A stretch of 64,000 bases of DNA from Escherichia coli (GTDB lineage Bacteria > Pseudomonadota > Gammaproteobacteria > Enterobacterales > Enterobacteriaceae), in the NCBI RefSeq assembly GCF_009931435.1, contig NZ_CP043414.1, one strand, 5' to 3'. The translations under genes and the position numbers were made by a program. The notes beneath the pieces are model-generated. The model had not been told where the DNA came from. It saw nothing but the letters and a program-made list of their open reading frames with translations, and searched no databases. Shown here one piece after another: positions 9,284-61,344 of the stretch (positions are counted from its first letter, which is position 1; each line of letters begins with the position of its first letter).

Positions 9284-10460
9284 ATTGCAGACCGCGCTCT
9301 TTCAGGCGTTCGATACCCTGAATCTGCAACGGGTAAAAACATTTAGCGTTCCACCGGTGACGCTTTGCGGTCCGGGCGCGGTGAGCAGTTGCGGACAGCA
9401 AGCGCAAACGCGTGGGCTGAAACATCTGTTCGTGATGGCAGACAGCTTTTTGCATCAGGCAGGGATGACCGCCGGGCTGACGCGTAGCCTGGCCGTTAAA
9501 GGTATCGCCATGACGCTCTGGCCATGTCCGGTGGGCGAACCGTGCATCACTGACGTGTGTGCCGCCGTGGCGCAGTTGCGTGAATCAGGCTGTGATGGGG
9601 TGATCGCGTTTGGCGGTGGCTCGGTGCTGGATGCGGCAAAAGCCGTGGCGTTGCTGGTAACGAATCCCGATAGCACGCTGGCAGAAATGTCAGAAACCAG
9701 CGTTCTGCAACCGCGCCTGCCGTTGATTGCCATTCCAACTACCGCCGGAACCGGCTCTGAAACCACCAATGTAACGGTGATTATCGACGCGGTGAGCGGG
9801 CGCAAGCAGGTGTTAGCACATGCCTCGTTGATGCCGGATGTGGCGATTCTCGACGCCGCGCTGACCGAAGGTGTGCCGTCGCATGTCACGGCAATGACCG
9901 GTATCGACGCGTTAACTCATGCCATTGAAGCGTACAGCGCGCTGAACGCTACACCGTTTACAGACAGCCTGGCGATTGGCGCAATTGCGATGATTGGTAA
10001 ATCACTGCCGAAAGCAGTGGGTTACGGTCATGACCTTGCCGCGCGCGAGAGTATGTTGCTGGCTTCATGCATGGCGGGAATGGCATTTTCCAGTGCCGGA
10101 CTTGGGTTATGTCACGCGATGGCGCATCAGCCGGGGGCGGCGCTGCATATTCCGCACGGTCTGGCGAACGCCATGCTGCTGCCCACGGTGATGGAGTTTA
10201 ACCGGATGGTCTGTCGCGAACGGTTTAGTCAGATTGGTCGGGCGCTGCGAACTAAAAAATCCGACGATCGTGACGCTATTAACGCGGTAAGTGAGCTGAT
10301 TGCGGAAGTCGGGATTGGTAAACGACTGGGCGATGTTGGTGCGGCATCTGCGCATTACGGCGCATGGGCGCAGGCCGCGCTGGAAGATATTTGTCTGCGC
10401 AGCAACCCGCGTACCGCCAGCCTGGAGCAGATTGTCGGCTTGTACGCAGCGGCGCAATAA
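9273..10460 (+). CDS. eutG: iron-containing alcohol dehydrogenase EutG
   Basis: 395 aa Fe-ADH family ORF; operon position. Confidence 0.9.
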   Translation: MQNELQTALFQAFDTLNLQRVKTFSVPPVTLCGPGAVSSCGQQAQTRGLKHLFVMADSFLHQAGMTAGLTRSLAVKGIAMTLWPCPVGEPCITDVCAAVAQLRESGCDGVIAFGGGSVLDAAKAVALLVTNPDSTLAEMSETSVLQPRLPLIAIPTTAGTGSETTNVTVIIDAVSGRKQVLAHASLMPDVAILDAALTEGVPSHVTAMTGIDALTHAIEAYSALNATPFTDSLAIGAIAMIGKSLPKAVGYGHDLAARESMLLASCMAGMAFSSAGLGLCHAMAHQPGAALHIPHGLANAMLLPTVMEFNRMVCRERFSQIGRALRTKKSDDRDAINAVSELIAEVGIGKRLGDVGAASAHYGAWAQAALEDICLRSNPRTASLEQIVGLYAAAQ

Positions 10461-10676
<216 letters not shown>

Positions 10677-23193: not shown

Positions 23194-24177
<984 letters not shown>

Positions 24178-24234
24178 GCGCTTCTGATTCGATGATTAAA
24201 GGCCAGCCAGTAACACAACTGGCTGGCCTTTTTA

Positions 24235-25539
24235 TTACTTCTGCTTTAACGCCGCATACACCTGATCCACCACCCAACCATAAGTTGCAATCGGTAACTG
24301 ACCGCTTTCGAACATATTGGGATTTTTTTGTGGATCGGCAACTGGCGAATGTGGCTTGTTGCTTAACATCACAATCGCCATATGATTCACCGGATCGATA
24401 ACGGTCACCGTCCCGGTCCAGCCAGTGTGACCGTAGGTTTGCGGGCTTGCCAACGTGCCAAACGTCGGCGTCATGATGGCATTACCATTCACGCGCCAGC
24501 CGAGGCCAAAAGTGGCGTCTTCCTTTGAGCTGGTGGTGAACATCTTAACCGTTTCCGCACTGAACAGCGTCACATCACCATAGCCGCCGCCGTTCAGCAT
24601 CGTTTGCATTAACACCGCAATATCACCGGTATTGGAAAACAAACCTGCGTGCCCGGAAACGCCGCCCATCGAATAGAATGCTTTTTCATCGTGCACCTGA
24701 CCCCAGAGAGTGGAGGTGCGGATATTCGGGAAGTGAATCACGCCATCGCGGGTATTGCCGTTCAGTTCCGTGGCGGCAATTTGCTGTGGTTTAAAGCCTT
24801 TCAGCAGCGGATTAAACACCGTATGCGTCAGGCCGAGCGGGCGATAAATCGACTCTTCAACATAGCGGTCAAGCGGCTGACCGGTGACCGACTCGACGAT
24901 AAATCCAAGCAGCATATAATCGACATCGCTGTAGATATGCTTGCTGCCGGGCTGATACTCCAGCGGCGTGCGCTTGATCATCTCCAGCGTCTGGCCTTTA
25001 TCCTGGGAATATAACGCGCCCGCGACCGCTTTATTCGGATATTGCGGATCTGCCGGGAAACCGCCGCTGTGATGCAGCAGATCAGAAATCCGCAGCGTGT
25101 TTTTGCCTTTGATCGCATCGTTCGGGCTGTCGGCAAACCCTGGGATATATTTCGCAATCAGATCGTCAGGATGTAGTTTGCCTTCGCTCATCAGCTTTTG
25201 CAGGGCGAAGTTAGTGGCGTACATCTTGGTGTTTGAGGCCAGATCATACAGCGTCCCGGTGGTGGCTTTTAACGGCTGCGCCATTAACGCGCTGCCATCG
25301 TACTTTTTCGCCGCGCCCCAGGCTTTGCGATAAACAATCTGATTATCTTTTATAATCAGCAGGTTTACGCCGGGATAACCATCATCAACTTGCTGGCTAA
25401 TCCAGCGATCCATCTGATTAAGCCGTTCGACGTTAAACCCTGCTTTCTCTGGCGAACTTTCTGTCAGAACAGGGTATTTTGCGGCGCTGACGCTACAGCT
25501 GACAGCCAGCAGAGAAAAATAGAGCATTGTCCGTTTCAT
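24235..25539 (-). CDS. yfeW: penicillin-binding protein 4B-like beta-lactamase-fold protein
   Basis: 434 aa; signal peptide; class C beta-lactamase / PBP fold sequence. Confidence 0.85.
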   Translation of the reverse strand: MKRTMLYFSLLAVSCSVSAAKYPVLTESSPEKAGFNVERLNQMDRWISQQVDDGYPGVNLLIIKDNQIVYRKAWGAAKKYDGSALMAQPLKATTGTLYDLASNTKMYATNFALQKLMSEGKLHPDDLIAKYIPGFADSPNDAIKGKNTLRISDLLHHSGGFPADPQYPNKAVAGALYSQDKGQTLEMIKRTPLEYQPGSKHIYSDVDYMLLGFIVESVTGQPLDRYVEESIYRPLGLTHTVFNPLLKGFKPQQIAATELNGNTRDGVIHFPNIRTSTLWGQVHDEKAFYSMGGVSGHAGLFSNTGDIAVLMQTMLNGGGYGDVTLFSAETVKMFTTSSKEDATFGLGWRVNGNAIMTPTFGTLASPQTYGHTGWTGTVTVIDPVNHMAIVMLSNKPHSPVADPQKNPNMFESGQLPIATYGWVVDQVYAALKQK

Positions 25540-25541
25540 AA

Positions 25542-26966
<1,425 letters not shown>

Positions 26967-26969
26967 GGG

Positions 26970-27866
26970 TTATTCCTTGTCTAAAACCTGACGAATAAAG
27001 CCGCCGTGTTGATCCAGGCGTTTTTTTGCTTCTGCGGCATCGAGATTTTTCAGCACCATCACAATGGCCGTTTTACAGTTGCGCTCGCAAGCAATTAACG
27101 CCGCTTCCGCTTGTTCGGCGTTACATCCGGTGGCGTTTTTAACGATATTGACCTGGCGCACATGCAATTTTTCGTTGGTGGCGACCACATCGACCATCAG
27201 GTTGCCGAACACTTTGCCGGATTTAATCATCAGCCCGGTAGAGAGCATATTGAGCACCAGTTTCTGCGCTGTGCCTGCTTTCATTCGCGAAGAACCGGTA
27301 ACCACTTCGGCACCAACCACCGGAGTAATAGCAAACTCAGCGGTGGTTGAAACGGCGCTCCCCGGATTACAGGAAATGCCCACTGTGCGGCAACCGAGTT
27401 GGCGTGCGTATTCCAGCCCGGCAATCACATACGGTGTGCGACCGCTGGCAGCAATACCAACCACCACATCCTGTGCGGTTAAGCCGATATTTTTTAGATC
27501 GTTAACGCCACCTTCCCGGCTATCTTCTGCGCCTTCCACCGCGTGCTGAATGGCATATTCACCGCCAGCAATCAAACCAACCACCAGGCCCGGTTTGACG
27601 CCGTAGGTCGGCGGACATTCGCTGGCATCAAGAATACCCAGACGACCGGAAGTCCCCGCACCGATGTAAATCAGTCGACCGCCGCCGCTTACCTGGGCGT
27701 GGATAACATCGATCGCTGCGGCGATATCCGGCAGTACACGCTCAACGGCAAGTGGTACGGTTTTATCTTCATTGTTGATAATCCGGCACATTTCCAGCGT
27801 TGATACGCGGTCAATTTCAGCCGAAGCGGCATTCGAGCCTTCGGTAATCATCTTTTCAAGTTGCAT
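26970..27866 (-). CDS. murQ: N-acetylmuramic acid 6-phosphate etherase
   Basis: 298 aa SIS-domain protein directly upstream of murP. Confidence 0.9.
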
Positions 27867-28029
27867 CGGTGGTGACCTTACTATTTACGATCAAATAATT
27901 GCAGATGGATGGAATCATATATCCCGAATTGACAGACTTAAAGGAATCATTGAGTCTACACTCGCAGAGTGTGAAGAGCGTCATAAGAACTTAAGCGGAA
28001 TTTTTGCTGCCAGCCCAGGAGAGTGGAAG

Positions 28030-28887
28030 ATGTTGTACCTGACGAAAATACGCAATGCAGAAAGTGAATTTACCGAGAACGAGCAAAAAATAGCTGACTT
28101 TCTGCAGGCTAAAGTGAGTGAGCTGAAATCCGTCTCTTCGCGCAAGATGGCGAAACAGCTCGGCATCAGCCAGTCGAGTATTGTGAAGTTTGCCCAGAAG
28201 CTCGGCGCGCAAGGATTTACTGAATTGCGTATGGCGTTAATTGGCGAATACAGTGCCAGCCGGGAGAAAACGAATGCCACGGCGCTGCACTTGCACAGTT
28301 CGATTACCAGTGACGATTCGCTGGAAGTGATTGCCCGCAAACTGAATCGCGAAAAAGAGCTGGCACTGGAGCAAACCTGCGCCTTACTCGATTACGCGCG
28401 GCTGCAAAAAATCATTGAGGTCATCAGTAAAGCGCCGTTTATCCAGATAACAGGCCTGGGCGGGTCGGCGCTGGTGGGGCGCGATCTTTCATTCAAACTG
28501 ATGAAAATTGGTTATCGCGTGGCCTGTGAAGCCGACACGCACGTACAAGCTACCGTTTCCCAGGCGTTGAAAAAAGGTGATGTACAAATCGCTATCTCTT
28601 ACAGCGGCAGTAAAAAAGAGATTTTGCTATGCGCCGAGGCAGCGCGAAAGCAGGGGGCAACGGTGATTGCCATTACTTCACTGACTGACTCTCCGCTGCG
28701 GCGGTTGGCACATTTCACCCTCGATACCGTTTCTGGTGAAACCGAATGGCGTAGCTCGTCGATGTCCACCCGCACGGCGCAAAATTCGGTTACCGATTTA
28801 CTGTTTGTTGGGCTGGTACAACTTAATGATGTCGAGTCATTGAAAATGATTGAGCGCAGCAGTGAGCTAACACAACGCCTGAAATGA
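28030..28887 (+). CDS. murR: RpiR-family transcriptional repressor MurR
   Basis: 285 aa from ATG at 28030 ([14 protein letters not shown]...); HTH plus SIS domain; divergent from murQP. Confidence 0.88.
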
Positions 28888-29015
28888 TGCATAAAGCAGC
28901 GACTGGATTGAGATTTTCCTGAATTAGTGAGCTGATCCGCAGCAATATTTTGTTTATCCTGTATTTTCAGAGGGAATGGAGTGTAACGCTCTGTATTAAC
29001 AAGGAGAGCATTAAA

Positions 29016-29807
29016 ATGGGTAAACTCACGGGCAAGACAGCACTGATTACGGGCGCATTGCAGGGAATTGGCGAAGGAATTGCCAGAACTTTTGCGCGTC
29101 ATGGCGCAAACCTAATCTTGCTGGATATCTCCCCTGAGATCGAAAAGCTGGCGGACGAACTGTGTGGTCGTGGTCATCGCTGTACGGCGGTTGTCGCCGA
29201 TGTGCGTGACCCGGCATCGGTAGCCGCAGCTATCAAGCGCGCAAAGGAAAAAGAAGGGCGCATTGATATCCTGGTGAATAACGCAGGCGTTTGTCGTCTG
29301 GGCAGTTTCCTCGATATGAGCGATGAAGATCGCGATTTCCATATTGATATCAATATAAAAGGCGTATGGAACGTCACAAAGGCGGTGCTGCCGGAGATGA
29401 TTGCCCGCAAAGATGGTCGCATTGTGATGATGTCTTCGGTCACTGGCGATATGGTGGCCGATCCGGGCGAAACGGCGTATGCCTTAACGAAAGCGGCGAT
29501 TGTTGGCCTGACTAAATCGCTGGCGGTGGAGTACGCGCAGTCTGGTATTCGCGTTAACGCCATCTGCCCAGGATATGTTCGCACGCCAATGGCGGAAAGC
29601 ATCGCGCGTCAGTCGAACCCGGAGGATCCGGAATCGGTGCTGACTGAAATGGCGAAAGCAATCCCGTTGCGTCGCCTCGCCGATCCGCTGGAAGTTGGCG
29701 AACTGGCGGCCTTCCTCGCATCCGATGAATCCAGCTATTTAACCGGTACACAGAATGTGATTGATGGCGGCAGCACACTGCCGGAGACGGTTAGCGTCGG
29801 CATCTGA
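29016..29807 (+). CDS. ucpA: short-chain dehydrogenase/reductase UcpA
   Basis: 263 aa from ATG at 29016 (MGKLTGKTALITGALQGIG...), Rossmann TGxxxGxG motif. Confidence 0.88.
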   Translation: MGKLTGKTALITGALQGIGEGIARTFARHGANLILLDISPEIEKLADELCGRGHRCTAVVADVRDPASVAAAIKRAKEKEGRIDILVNNAGVCRLGSFLDMSDEDRDFHIDINIKGVWNVTKAVLPEMIARKDGRIVMMSSVTGDMVADPGETAYALTKAAIVGLTKSLAVEYAQSGIRVNAICPGYVRTPMAESIARQSNPEDPESVLTEMAKAIPLRRLADPLEVGELAAFLASDESSYLTGTQNVIDGGSTLPETVSVGI

Positions 29808-33997: not shown

Positions 33998-34034
33998 GTA
34001 GGCCTGATAAGACGCGTAAACGTCGCATCAGGCA
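33998..34034. repeat. REP element between cysA and cysM
   Basis: gtaggcctgataagacgcg...cgtcgcatcaggc palindromic REP. Confidence 0.75.
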
Positions 34035-55954: not shown

Positions 55955-56124
55955 TCTCTGCCTTTTGCCGCTTTTGTAATACAGTCTACATCCTGGCAGT
56001 GCCGTGTGGTGAATGCATCACTGACTGAAAAAACAGCAACAGGCTGGCCCCTGTTTGCTTCGCGATGCGAATAAACTTATTATTTGTGTGCCTGAAAACC
56101 CCGATCAGTGAGAGTAGTGTACTC

Positions 56125-58323
56125 ATGTTTGTGGAGCATAACCTGATAAAAAATATCAAGATATTCACACTAGCGTTTACGCTCACCGTGGTACTTATTC
56201 AGCTATCCCGTTTTATTTCGCCACTTGCCATTATCCATTCCAGTTATATCTTTCTGGCGTGGATGCCACTGTGCGTAATGCTGTCAATCTTGTTTATCTT
56301 TGGCTGGCGCGGTGTCGTTCCCGTTTTATGCGGGATGTTTTGCACCAATCTGTGGAACTTTCATCTCTCTTTTTTACAGACCGCGGTCATGCTCGGCAGC
56401 CAGACGTTTGTGGTGTTGTGTGCCTGCGCAATATTACGCTGGCAGCTGGGGACGCGTTGGCGTTATGGATTGACCAGCCGATACGTCTGGCAACGTCTGT
56501 TCTGGCTTGGTTTGGTGGCGCCGATTGGCATCAAATGCAGCATGTATCTTGTGGGAAATTTCTTTGATTTTCCGCTAAAGATATCTACCTTTTTCGGCGA
56601 TGCGGATGCCATTTTCACGGTCGTTGATTTGCTAAGCCTTTTCACCGCAGTGCTGATTTACAACATGCTTTTTTACTATCTCACCCGCATGATTGTAAGT
56701 CCCCACTTTGCACAGATATTGTGGCGTAGGGATATCGCTCCGTCGTTGAGCAAAGAGAAACGCGCATTTACCTTAAGCTGGCTGGCAGCTCTTAGCGTGC
56801 TGCTACTTCTGATGTGCACACCGTATGAAAATGACTTTATTGCCGGTTACCTGGTACCTGTTTTCTTTATCATCTTTACCCTCGGGGTCGGTAAGCTTCG
56901 CTATCCGTTTTTAAATCTCACCTGGGCTGTTTCAACGCTTTGCCTTCTGAATTACAACCAGAACTTTTTGCAAGGGGTACTAACCGAATATTCGCTGGCA
57001 TTTATTCTCGCGGTGCTGATTTCCTTTAGTGTTTGCCTGCTCTATATGGTGCGCATTTATCATCGTAGTGAATGGCTTAACCGACGCTGGCATTTGCAGG
57101 CGCTGACCGATCCGTTAACGCTCTTACCCAACTTTCGCGCGTTGGAACAAGCACCAGAGCAAGAGGCTGGCAAGAGTTTTTGCTGCCTGCGTATTGATAA
57201 CCTTGAGTTTATGAGTCGTCATTACGGGTTAATGATGCGCGTTCACTGTATCCGCTCAATTTACCGTACGTTAATGCCGCTGATGCAGGAAAACGAAAAG
57301 TTGTATCAATTGCCGGGGAGTGAACTGCTGTTAGTGCTGAGCGGGCCGGAAACGGAAGGGCGACTCCAGCATATGGTTAACATCCTGAATAGTCGGCAAA
57401 TTCACTGGAACAATACCGGGCTGGATATGGGCTATGGTGCTGCCTGGGGGCATTTCGATGGAAATCAGGAAACCCTGCAACCAATGCTCGGGCAGTTAAG
57501 CTGGCTGGCGGAACAATCCTGCGCACATCATCATGTGCTGGCGCTGGATAGCAGAGAGGAGATGGTTTCCGGGCAAACCACTAAACAGGTGCTATTGCTG
57601 AATACCATTCGCACGGCGTTAGATCAGGGTGATTTGCTGCTCTACGCCCAGCCAATTCGCAACAAAGAGGGTGAAGGTTATGATGAGATCCTCGCGCGAC
57701 TGAAGTATGACGGCGGCATTATGACCCCGGATAAGTTTCTGCCCCTTATTGCTCAGTTTAACCTTAGCGCGCGTTTTGATTTGCAAGTGCTGGAATCCTT
57801 GTTGAAGTGGCTGGCAACACACCCTTGCGACAAAAAAGGTCCGCGCTTTTCAGTCAATTTAATGCCGCTCACGCTGCTGCAAAAAAATATCGCCGGGCGG
57901 ATTATTCGTCTGTTTAAGCGTTATCACATCTCCCCGCAGGCGGTCATTCTTGAGATCACCGAGGAACAGGCGTTTTCTAACGCAGAAAGCAGTATGTACA
58001 ACATCGAGCAGCTGCATAAGTTTGGTTTCCGGATTGCGATTGATGATTTTGGCACCGGCTATGCCAACTACGAACGGCTAAAGCGTTTGCAGGCTGATAT
58101 CATCAAAATTGATGGCGTCTTTGTGAAAGATATCGTCACGAACACGCTGGATGCGATGATTGTGAGATCAATTACCGATCTGGCGAAAGCGAAGTCATTG
58201 AGTGTGGTCGCGGAGTTTGTCGAAACGCCACAGCAGCAGGCGCTATTGCATAAGCTCGGGGTGCAATATCTGCAAGGGTATTTGATTGGTCGCCCTCAGC
58301 CATTAACTGATGAACAGGCGTAA
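56125..58323 (+). CDS. yfeA: membrane-anchored GGDEF-like/EAL domain protein (putative c-di-GMP phosphodiesterase)
   Basis: ATG at 56125 (MFVEHNLIKNIKIF...); multi-TM N-terminal region; C-terminal EAL-type domain (...IAIDDFGTGYANYERLKRLQADIIKIDG...). Confidence 0.85.
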   Translation: MFVEHNLIKNIKIFTLAFTLTVVLIQLSRFISPLAIIHSSYIFLAWMPLCVMLSILFIFGWRGVVPVLCGMFCTNLWNFHLSFLQTAVMLGSQTFVVLCACAILRWQLGTRWRYGLTSRYVWQRLFWLGLVAPIGIKCSMYLVGNFFDFPLKISTFFGDADAIFTVVDLLSLFTAVLIYNMLFYYLTRMIVSPHFAQILWRRDIAPSLSKEKRAFTLSWLAALSVLLLLMCTPYENDFIAGYLVPVFFIIFTLGVGKLRYPFLNLTWAVSTLCLLNYNQNFLQGVLTEYSLAFILAVLISFSVCLLYMVRIYHRSEWLNRRWHLQALTDPLTLLPNFRALEQAPEQEAGKSFCCLRIDNLEFMSRHYGLMMRVHCIRSIYRTLMPLMQENEKLYQLPGSELLLVLSGPETEGRLQHMVNILNSRQIHWNNTGLDMGYGAAWGHFDGNQETLQPMLGQLSWLAEQSCAHHHVLALDSREEMVSGQTTKQVLLLNTIRTALDQGDLLLYAQPIRNKEGEGYDEILARLKYDGGIMTPDKFLPLIAQFNLSARFDLQVLESLLKWLATHPCDKKGPRFSVNLMPLTLLQKNIAGRIIRLFKRYHISPQAVILEITEEQAFSNAESSMYNIEQLHKFGFRIAIDDFGTGYANYERLKRLQADIIKIDGVFVKDIVTNTLDAMIVRSITDLAKAKSLSVVAEFVETPQQQALLHKLGVQYLQGYLIGRPQPLTDEQA

Positions 58324-58451
58324 AAAAAGCAGGGAATTATCCCCGGCTTTTGTGGCTGATGACAAACAGAAAAATGCCTGATGCGCTACGCTTATCAGGC
58401 CTACATGGAATTGAAGCCGGGGAATTATCCCCGGCTTTTTTATGTATGGTT
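58324..58451. repeat. yfeA-nupC intergenic: REP element flanked by two copies of a GC-rich terminator hairpin
   Basis: REP gcctgatgcgctacgcttatcaggcctac (58376-58404); hairpin gccggggaattatccccggc + T-tract at 58416-58442; related copy agcagggaattatccccggcttttg at 58329-58351. Confidence 0.7.
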
Positions 58452-59654
58452 TTACAGCACCAGTGCTGCGATTGACGCAGACAGCACACTCACCAGAGTA
58501 GAGCCGTAAACCAGTTTCAGACCGAAGCGAGAAACCACGTTACCTTGCTCTTCATTCAGGCCTTTAACCGCACCGGCGATAATCCCGATAGAAGAGAAGT
58601 TAGCGAAGGAAACCAGGAACACGGAGATGATGCCTTCAGCACGCGGAGAGAGCGTGGAAGCGATTTTCTGCAGATCCATCATCGCAACGAACTCGTTGGA
58701 AACCAGTTTGGTCGCCATAATACTGCCCACCTGCAGTGCTTCACTGGAAGGAACACCCATCACCCAAGCAACCGGATAGAAGATGTAGCCCAGGATGCCC
58801 TGGAAGGAGATGCTGTAGCCAAACCAGCCAGTCACAGTGGCAAACAGTGCGTTCAGCGCAGCGATCAGGGCGATAAAGCCGATCAGCATCGCGGCAACGA
58901 TAATAGCAACTTTGAAACCTGCCAGAATGTATTCACCCAGCATTTCGAAGAAGCTCTGACCTTCGTGCAGGTTGGACATCTGAATATTTTCTTCACTGGC
59001 ATCAACACGGTAAGGGTTGATCAGCGACAGCACGATAAAGGTGCTGAACATGTTCAGTACCAGCGCCGCAACGACGTATTTCGGCTCCAGCATCGTCATG
59101 TATGCACCAACGATGGACATCGACACGGTGGACATCGCCGTAGCTGCCATGGTGTACATACGATTGCGGGAGATTTTGCCGAGGATATCTTTATAGGCAA
59201 TAAAGTTTTCAGACTGACCCAGAATCAGAGAGCTGACGGCGTTGAAGGATTCCAGTTTGCCCATACCGTTGACTTTGGAGAGCAGGAAACCAATTGCGCG
59301 GATAATCACCGGCAACACGCGAATGTGCTGGAGAATACCAATCAGCGCAGAGATAAAGACGATTGGGCACAGCACTTTCAGGAAGAAGAATGCCAGGCCT
59401 TGATCATTCATGCTACCAAAGACGAAGTTAGTCCCTTCGTTGGCAAATCCGAGCAGTTTCTCAAACATTTCGGAGAAGCCTTTCACGAAGCCCAAACCAA
59501 CGTCGGAGTTCAGGAAGAACCACGCCAGTAACACTTCGATAACAAGCAGTTGAATAACATAACGGATACGAATTTTTTTGCGGTCGCTGCTTACCAGCAG
59601 TGCGAGAATCGCAACAACGGCAAGTGCCAGTACAAAATGAAGGACGCGGTCCAT
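58452..59654 (-). CDS. nupC: concentrative nucleoside transporter (CNT family)
   Basis: 400 aa from ATG at 59654 ([21 protein letters not shown]...). Confidence 0.9.
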
Positions 59655-59920
59655 ATTTGCTCCAAATATGAGGCAGGTTAAATTTCCGTGCACATTCTAT
59701 GTAACATGGTTAAGGAAAACGAGATCTGACACACACTATAATGACGTCCTGTGACAAGCTTCAAAAATAGTGAGCTGTCATACATTTCTGCTATGTTGTG
59801 TATGGAAGCTGAAAGTTATGTAAATGTGCTAACATTAAACATAATCACAACATTCAAGTCATCAATCTTTTCGTCGTCATAATTCTGGTCTATCAAAGAA
59901 ATCATCACAATCCACTTAAA

Positions 59921-61255: not shown

Positions 61256-61344
<89 letters not shown>

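Follow-up and report, generated by a model that had tools for sequence, protein, structure and literature searches.

Why does the same terminator-like hairpin occur twice, on the same strand, on either side of a REP in the spacer between the convergent genes pdeA and nupC? The question is raised by a 64,000-nt stretch of Escherichia coli DNA (contig NZ_CP043414.1), called the window hereafter. We consider it highly probable that the two hairpins derive from one ancestral bidirectional terminator hairpin, copied to both sides of an inserted BIME-1 that has since decayed.

Layout of the pdeA-nupC spacer

A repeat search of the window returned GGGAATTATCCCCGGCTTTT as a maximal exact direct repeat of 20 nt (58332-58351 and 58420-58439), the two copies being 88 nt apart from start to start. 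With up to 3 mismatches allowed, they remain the only 2 matches in the window, against a mean of 0.01 in 100 dinucleotide shuffles, none of which contained two or more; chance is no explanation for the presence of both copies in the spacer. If one indel/substitution cluster is tolerated, the similarity extends to about 26 bp, AAGC(A/CG)GGGAATTATCCCCGGCTTTT (58327-58351 versus 58414-58439). The spacer measures 128 bp in the window, and 62 bp, including the 29-nt REP, separate the two hairpin copies. Its features are as follows.

56065..58323, + strand: pdeA (yfeA) coding region, with stop codon TAA at 58321-58323 (from the list of open reading frames; homologous loci are annotated pdeA)
58327..58351, no strand assigned: hairpin copy 1, AAGCAGGGAATTATCCCCGGCTTTT (from the sequence, the direct repeat and a terminator-like call on the - strand)
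58352..58375, + strand: probable BIME-1 left terminal motif, GTGGCTGATGACAAACAGAAAAAT (aligns with the left ends of full BIME-1 copies)
58376..58404, + strand: REP, or palindromic unit, of the z1 type, 29 nt, GCCTGATGCGCTACGCTTATCAGGCCTAC (from the sequence and a REP motif scan)
58405..58413, + strand: probable remnant of the interior and right end of BIME-1, ATGGAATTG (from alignment with the complete E. whittamii element)
58414..58441, + strand: hairpin copy 2, AAGCCGGGGAATTATCCCCGGCTTTTTT, a perfect stem followed by U6 (terminator-like call on the + strand)
58452..59693, - strand: nupC coding region, with stop codon at 58452-58454 (from the list of open reading frames; named after homologous annotated loci)

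The two genes are convergent in the window, and both names are taken from the annotation of homologous loci, where pdeA is described as a bifunctional diguanylate cyclase/phosphodiesterase; the nupC interval is a mechanical open reading frame, the annotated homologues being 1203 nt long. In copy 1 the 5' arm is degenerate, with GCAGGG where GCCGGGG is expected. An A-run (58322-58328) precedes this copy, so that on the - strand the hairpin is followed by U7; on the + strand, directly past the pdeA stop, the same copy gives a weaker hairpin followed by UUUU. The repeat part of copy 2 is AAGCCGGGGAATTATCCCCGGCTTTT (58414-58439).

An earlier note on this DNA had described two same-strand copies of a motif around a REP between convergent yfeA and nupC, and the exact 20-mer pair, together with the z1 REP at 58376-58404, bears it out. 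The repeat itself thus stands, with positions corrected by at most 2 nt (the 19-mer in fact starts at 58333 and 58421). The duplicated unit had been drawn too short at 19 nt, however: there are indeed two copies, of the whole palindrome of about 26 bp. The second copy had also been credited with a perfect stem and a T-tract, and it has both, with a stem of 10-11 bp, 7 G-C pairs and T6.

Predicted folding of the hairpins

The stem of copy 2 closes on a 4-nt loop, ATTA, and has an energy of -20.4 kcal/mol; followed by its T6 run, it is terminator-like on the + strand. Copy 1 forms a bulged stem of 5-6 pairs (-11.4 kcal/mol on the + strand and -12.6 on the - strand), and is terminator-like on the - strand, where it has a T7 tail. 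The elements of an intrinsic terminator (GC-rich stem, short loop and U-tract) are therefore found in copy 2 on the + strand and in copy 1 on the - strand. Both strands of the whole interval fold far better than shuffled sequences (z = -5.5 and -5.9), and the REP at 58376-58404, whose stem has an internal mismatch, reaches about -13 kcal/mol whichever strand is folded. From these predicted structures, copy 2 is a candidate terminator for read-through from pdeA, and copy 1, on the - strand, a candidate terminator for nupC. An Rfam scan of 58100-58700 gave nothing above threshold; the only matches, to MicX, anti-hemB and SCARNA6, lay far below it.

The same interval in other genomes

Queried with 501 bp around the spacer, most E. 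coli genomes match in two pieces spanning 413 bp, exactly 88 bp less than in the window; the 88 extra bases consist of the 62-bp insert and a second hairpin copy of about 26 bp. In O157:H7 the spacer is 49 bp long and holds a single hairpin, TAAAAAAGCCGGGGAATTATCCCCGGCTTTTTTATG. The goat strain R32_14_1F has the arrangement of the window. Of 5,426 complete E. coli genomes, only 17 match a 79-nt query covering both junctions at 100% identity, and these are the nearest relatives of the window (98.6-99.4% identity over a neutral 10 kb, versus at most 97.8% for other E. coli). Since the filled genomes are the closest relatives of the window, the filled allele is, judging from the sequences, a marker of a deep-branching lineage and not an assembly error.

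Outgroups were fetched by means of the PdeA C-terminus. A single hairpin is found in Escherichia sp. MOD1-EC7003, SCPM-O-B-8794 and Escherichia sp. E1V33, as well as in three Citrobacter, including Citrobacter amalonaticus and C. sedlakii, whose hairpin sequences are their own. Because the outgroups carry a single hairpin, we take one bidirectional hairpin to be the ancestral state.

A comparison of the interval between strains had been proposed in the earlier note, which suspected a composite of terminator and REP, possibly produced by REP-associated duplication. The single-hairpin alleles, common in the species and found in outgroups, support that suspicion with respect to the predicted terminator and the REP, the window having the hairpin twice and a REP insert; the insert is best seen as a BIME-1 remnant and not as a bare REP. 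The loss of one copy in a corrected assembly, named there as the result that would overturn the observation, did not occur, both junctions being identical in 17 independent complete genomes.

The insert as a decayed BIME-1

In E. whittamii Sa2BVA5, a complete element of about 151 bp lies between the same two hairpin copies, with the same junctions as in the window. It begins with the left terminal motif and a z1 REP; a linker of about 35 nt, in which TATTGAATTT occurs, separates these from an inverted y REP and the right terminal motif. Over its full length the element is collinear with the BIME-1 found between gudD and barA in E. coli. BIME-1 is defined as a z1 and a y REP separated by a long linker L, present in single copy (PMC3333891), and the E. 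whittamii insert is assigned to this family because its composition matches that definition.

The window insert retains part of this structure. Its left motif, GTGGCTGATGACAAACAGAAAAAT, aligns with those of E. whittamii pdeA-nupC, E. coli gudD-barA and 12 other loci, while the right outer motif is reduced to its last 2-4 nt. As expected of a z1 REP, for which a length of 29 nt is given (PMC8266576), the REP is a GC-rich, imperfectly palindromic stretch of about that length, with CTAC at its end (GTAG on the - strand). The high intergenic copy number of REPs is also seen: the median number of places that REP-containing queries match in an E. coli genome is 16-19. Only one REP is found in the window, the inverted z1 and y pair being present in E. 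whittamii, and about 9 nt follow it in place of the long conserved linker, which, with its TATTGAATTT, is present in E. whittamii and at other loci. In BIME-1 generally, this linker often has an IHF site.

Since the full element occupies the same junctions in E. whittamii, the window allele is best read, from these alignments, as a BIME-1 with an internal deletion. One such deletion of about 90 bp (from 151 to 62 bp), together with a 1-nt change, suffices to derive the window insert from the E. whittamii form. REP singlets are in general regarded as decayed doublets (PMC3116915). A donor for the 62-bp insert was sought, but no exact copy turned up beyond the 17 genomes with the filled allele; the gudD-barA BIME-1 comes closest (91.5% identity over 59 nt). 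The pdeA-nupC locus itself is rated as an ordinary, decayed BIME-1 insertion.

Further internal decay is seen in a BIME-1 variant between glpD and yzgL on a metagenomic contig, where most of the z1 REP is deleted and GCCTGATGCG is joined straight to the linker.

Hairpin duplication at other BIME-1 loci

Other BIME-1 loci were collected in two ways. Metagenomes scanned for a z REP with the left terminal motif attached yielded 23 contigs from about six sites, and a similarity search with the BIME-1 body alone, blind to the flanks, added further sites. At 9 of the 15 BIME-1 loci inspected (pdeA-nupC, mog-satP, tdh-waaH, ridA-mgtA, artJ-rlmC, uspB-pitA, yacH-lpdA, aspC-gloC and ydgA-uidC), a local terminator-like hairpin is directly repeated against both ends of the element. 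For five of these (pdeA-nupC, mog-satP, tdh-waaH, artJ-rlmC and ydgA-uidC), an empty allele with the hairpin present once was recovered from other E. coli; at mog-satP, K-12 is empty and strain Q5 filled. The repeat at tdh-waaH is limited to the loop and the 3' arm, 13 bp in all. The duplicated segment is derived from the target and differs at every locus, the ends of the element being constant. Its length tracks that of the hairpin (about 13-30 bp), and its boundaries, read by eye, lie 0-4 nt from the base of the stem.

A control was made by local alignment of flanks. Cognate left and right flanks scored 13-21.5 at 6 of 12 loci, whereas the maximum over 132 non-cognate pairs was 10.5, with a mean of 5.4; the cognate matches begin at the element boundary on both sides. 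The element is also of regular size, with 149-152 bp between its conserved ends at 11 of 12 loci; ridA-mgtA, with 142 bp, is the exception. In full BIME-1 copies, as distinct from the window remnant, the ends are inverted: left TGAGACTGATGACAAA and the reverse complement of right TCAGATTGTTGACAAA agree at 13 of 16 positions, read by eye. The five filled/empty pairs present a MITE-like trait, a flanking duplication that is missing from the empty allele, with a length, variable between 13 and 30 bp, that is atypical of such elements.

A flanking repeat was undetectable at the other 6 of the 15 loci, namely gudD-barA, glpD-yzgL, dppA-dppB, yajD-tsx and two metagenomic loci. The left end of the BIME-1 at yajD-tsx is truncated, and rearrangements at glpD-yzgL are too extensive for an empty allele to be defined there. 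The gudD-barA BIME-1 is found in 5,202 of 5,426 genomes (counting places that cover at least 80% of the query), and is therefore probably an old insertion; no clear empty allele was recovered. A decayed flanking repeat was considered at this locus (15 matches out of 26 by eye), and is unsupported, its flanks being at background similarity in the control.

The two copies of a hairpin often differ in their loops. At artJ-rlmC, ydgA-uidC and mog-satP, the right copy has the same loop as the hairpin of the empty site, and at the first two it is identical to that hairpin throughout, whereas the left copy, at the z1-REP end, keeps the stem with a different loop (ACCT versus AACC, GTTTTTCT versus AATTTTCA, and GAGC versus AGGC). 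Several other BIME-1 loci likewise have matching stems and divergent loops. Such a pattern could result from selection on the stem, from survivorship against repeat-mediated deletion, or from the way in which the new copy is made. At tdh-waaH, the loop is TATT in the empty allele and its reverse complement, AATA, in the filled one, a sequence difference that suggests a loop inversion between the arms; the right copy at this locus is without its 5' arm, and has AAATCCAA in its place.

Other REPs in the window

The window contains other REP loci, at about 10460-10650, at 33998-34033 and at 61257-61344; these are not BIME-1, and no duplicated hairpin was found flanking them, so that the signature is not a property of all REPs. 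The first is a tandem BIME placed directly after a stop codon, with two units of inverted REP pairs and a period of about 100 bp. The last, downstream of mntH, consists of a y REP and an inverted z REP separated by a short linker, with CCATTGGCG on both sides; the left CCATTGGCG overlaps the head of the REP, so that it looks like a truncated extra REP and not like a target duplication. The RefSeq annotation of MG1655, as retrieved, lists no REP or RIP features.

IS186 and the hairpin as a hot spot

Insertion sequence IS186 has the target consensus GGGG(N6/N7)CCCC (PMC5009759). The motif GGGG-N6-CCCC occurs in the window only in copy 2 (58419-58432), copy 1 having GGG only. In K-12, IS186 lies between nupC and pdeA inside GGGGAATTATCCCC, and is annotated IS186C in MG1655; in NZ_CP098226.1, it lies inside copy 2 of a filled allele. 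The pdeA-nupC hairpin is thus a hot spot for several elements: two lineages have a BIME-1 there, K-12 has IS186, and in E. albertii the junction is a different one.

The last case is that of strain NBRC 107761, in which the pdeA-proximal hairpin is broken after GCCGGGGAATAT and followed by unrelated sequence with only small unannotated ORFs (contig span 1905-3391); nupC was not found before the end of the contig. As far as the sequence goes, this is an insertion or a rearrangement at the same hairpin.

Record NZ_CP098226.1 (pZ0117EC0005-3, 23237-29315) is itself unusual, being a 50-kb plasmid-labelled record with a chromosomal segment (yfeC, three tRNA-Ala genes and pdeA) and many frameshifted genes. 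This segment is possibly an assembly artefact, or else an excised or duplicated chromosomal segment; the chromosome of the same strain also carries the filled allele. IS186 is present at the pdeA-nupC hairpin in the non-K-12 strain GB089 as well. About 967 of 5,425 E. coli genomes have no contiguous match across the spacer, and IS186 insertion of the K-12 type is one cause of this. The possibility that the 62-bp insert is an IS186 excision scar was ruled out, as it aligns with BIME-1 and not with the ends of IS186.

Alternative histories of the locus

Several other histories could leave a hairpin on both sides of an insert. An assembly or sequencing artefact, by which a repeat was collapsed or expanded, comes to mind for short and strongly structured repeats, which can mis-assemble; yet 17 complete genomes, assembled independently, agree exactly at the junction, and E. 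whittamii has a related allele, so that we give this explanation practically no credence. Two unrelated events, in which the hairpin was duplicated in tandem by slippage and a REP landed later between the copies, are very improbable in our view. Tandem duplications of short segments are common, and the order of events cannot be told from the final structure by itself, but no allele with two adjacent hairpins and no insert was seen among the strains and species opened at the locus. Moreover, the succession of hairpin, element and hairpin recurs at eight other loci with different hairpins, always abutting the conserved ends of the element, which would be unexpected if the two events were independent. 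An origin in replication or repair appears less far-fetched, and still unlikely: a strand stalled at the hairpin would have switched template to a BIME-1 elsewhere, then back to a point upstream of the hairpin. Hairpins do stall replication, the length of the duplication varies with the hairpin (13-30 bp), and the copies often differ in their loops while their stems match. Against such a switch, the ends of the element are constant within 1-2 nt at more than 12 loci and its length is 149-152 bp at 11 of 12, which points to termini recognised by an enzyme and not to random switch points.

The alternative that deserves most attention, even if we hold it to be rather improbable, concerns the polarity of the change. 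The flanks of the window are about 97% identical to those of E. coli and 91-95% identical to those of E. whittamii, with empty alleles in the lineages between. This patchy distribution of filled alleles, in the lineage of the window and in E. whittamii, requires two insertions, precise losses via the 26-bp repeats, or recombination. The two-hairpin state may accordingly be older than the split between E. coli and E. whittamii, the single hairpin having arisen by deletion between the 26-bp repeats, that is, by scarless excision. This would explain why the junctions of the filled alleles are identical in two lineages that have empty ones between them; direct repeats of 18-30 bp lying 150 bp apart are good substrates for slippage deletion, and presence/absence polymorphism of BIME-1 is widespread (PMC1187871). 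A single hairpin is nevertheless found in Citrobacter and in three other Escherichia lineages, so that even then the history must start with an insertion that made the duplication; the reversed polarity alters only the timing of this insertion, not its nature.

A possible mechanism

The insertion of a BIME-1 with duplication of its target hairpin would have proceeded as follows. The ancestral spacer would have held a single bidirectional intrinsic-terminator hairpin (A-tract, GCCGGGGAATTATCCCCGGC and T-tract), at which a BIME-1 (RIB/RIP) of about 151 bp, with its z1 REP, long linker, inverted y REP and terminal inverted motifs, was presumably inserted. The insertion would have placed the whole palindrome of about 26 bp on both sides, leaving the A-tract with the left copy and the T-tract with the right one. 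Later, in the lineage of the window, an internal deletion of about 90 bp would have cut the element down to 62 bp, at the expense of the linker, of the y REP and of most of the right end, and the 5' arm of the left hairpin would have decayed as well.

How could an insertion duplicate a whole hairpin? The simplest reading, we infer, is that the target palindrome, extruded as a hairpin or cruciform, is cut on the two strands at both its feet, with a stagger of its own length; a defined element would then be joined, and gap filling would copy the palindrome. A candidate enzyme would be TnpA-REP, the REP-associated HUH transposase, a hairpin-recognising enzyme that cuts 5' or 3' of REP structures (PMC8266576). 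The 3'-OH products of its cleavage could prime the synthesis (PMC8266576). The usual model for the mobility of REPs and REPINs, transposition of the IS200/IS605 type by HUH enzymes, gives no target duplication (PMC2817692).

For transcription, the insertion would have split a bidirectional terminator, one hairpin copy being left with the A-tract and the other with the T-tract. Transcripts of pdeA would run through a weak hairpin followed by U4, then the REP, then a strong hairpin followed by U6, and would be expected to stop at copy 2. Those of nupC would first pass the strong hairpin, which on this strand lacks a U-tract, and after the REP would reach the weaker one with its U7; copy 1 is where they would be expected to stop. 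On the folding predictions, each gene would retain a predicted terminator and acquire a REP-containing 3' UTR. The REP is a structure known from the literature (PMC3333891, among others) to influence mRNA decay.

Relation to known systems

The E. whittamii allele and 14 other loci fit the description of BIME-1 (also RIB or RIP), which comprises a z1 REP, a conserved linker, an inverted y REP, a length of about 150 bp, a single copy per locus, outer motifs and a position at the 3' ends of transcription units (PMC3333891). The window copy differs in keeping only the left terminal motif and one REP, and the flanking duplication of the target hairpin is missing from the accessible descriptions. 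REPINs, inverted REP doublets, are thought to be mobilised by a domesticated HUH transposase (RAYT, or TnpA-REP) that cuts at the feet of hairpins (PMC3116915, PMC8266576), which resembles the present case; the related IS200/IS605 transposases, however, leave no sizeable duplication (PMC2817692), whereas the duplications seen here measure 13-30 bp and follow the structure of the target. IS186, of the IS4 family, targets the very same hairpin, but it is an autonomous IS of 1.3 kb, duplicates about 10 bp of the loop region, and has a sequence unrelated to the 62-bp insert. The empty allele is like other bidirectional intrinsic terminators, in that a GC-rich hairpin, preceded by an A-tract and followed by a T-tract, lies in the 49 bp between the two stop codons; in the window, by contrast, the A-tract goes with one hairpin copy and the T-tract with the other, 88 bp away and beyond a REP.

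The target duplication of the Correia elements of Neisseria is TA. The duplications made by MITEs are short and of fixed length, whereas here the length is that of the target palindrome. Correia elements, which are MITEs, are otherwise similar in their size of about 100-150 bp, their terminal inverted repeats, their target duplications and their folding into long hairpins, and an IHF binding site is found in both Correia units and BIMEs (PMC3184786). The same review states that REPs do not display MITE signatures (PMC3184786), and the mechanism by which REPs and BIMEs are disseminated was called unresolved in 2021 (PMC8266576).

A BIME-1 flanked by a duplicated target terminator is not described in the literature accessible to us, to which the key papers of the 1990s do not belong, and an earlier description is possible. 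REPs, BIME-1, their polymorphism (PMC1187871) and their position at 3' ends are known already; what is new here, we hold with moderate confidence, is the duplication as long as the hairpin, and it may hint at the way in which these repeats spread.

Significance

A first consequence concerns annotation: paired terminator predictions around a REP may represent one duplicated terminator and not two independent ones. More generally, an element with constant ends, a target that is a terminator hairpin, and a duplication as long as this hairpin together form a footprint that makes the question of dissemination testable, and that would explain the location bias of BIME-1 as well as its presence/absence polymorphism.

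We tentatively propose, with slightly more doubt than belief, that BIME-1 are discrete mobile units of about 150 bp, which insert specifically at intrinsic-terminator hairpins, for the most part bidirectional and lying between convergent genes, by cuts at the feet of the hairpin, and duplicate it over its length (13-30 bp). If this is true, insertion would be close to neutral, as either flanking gene is left with a hairpin and a U-tract of its own, and reversible, because the direct repeats permit scarless excision. It would explain why BIME-1 are found at the 3' ends of transcription units and are so highly polymorphic, and the hairpin-length duplication would be the first sequence footprint of the mechanism by which REPs and BIMEs are disseminated.
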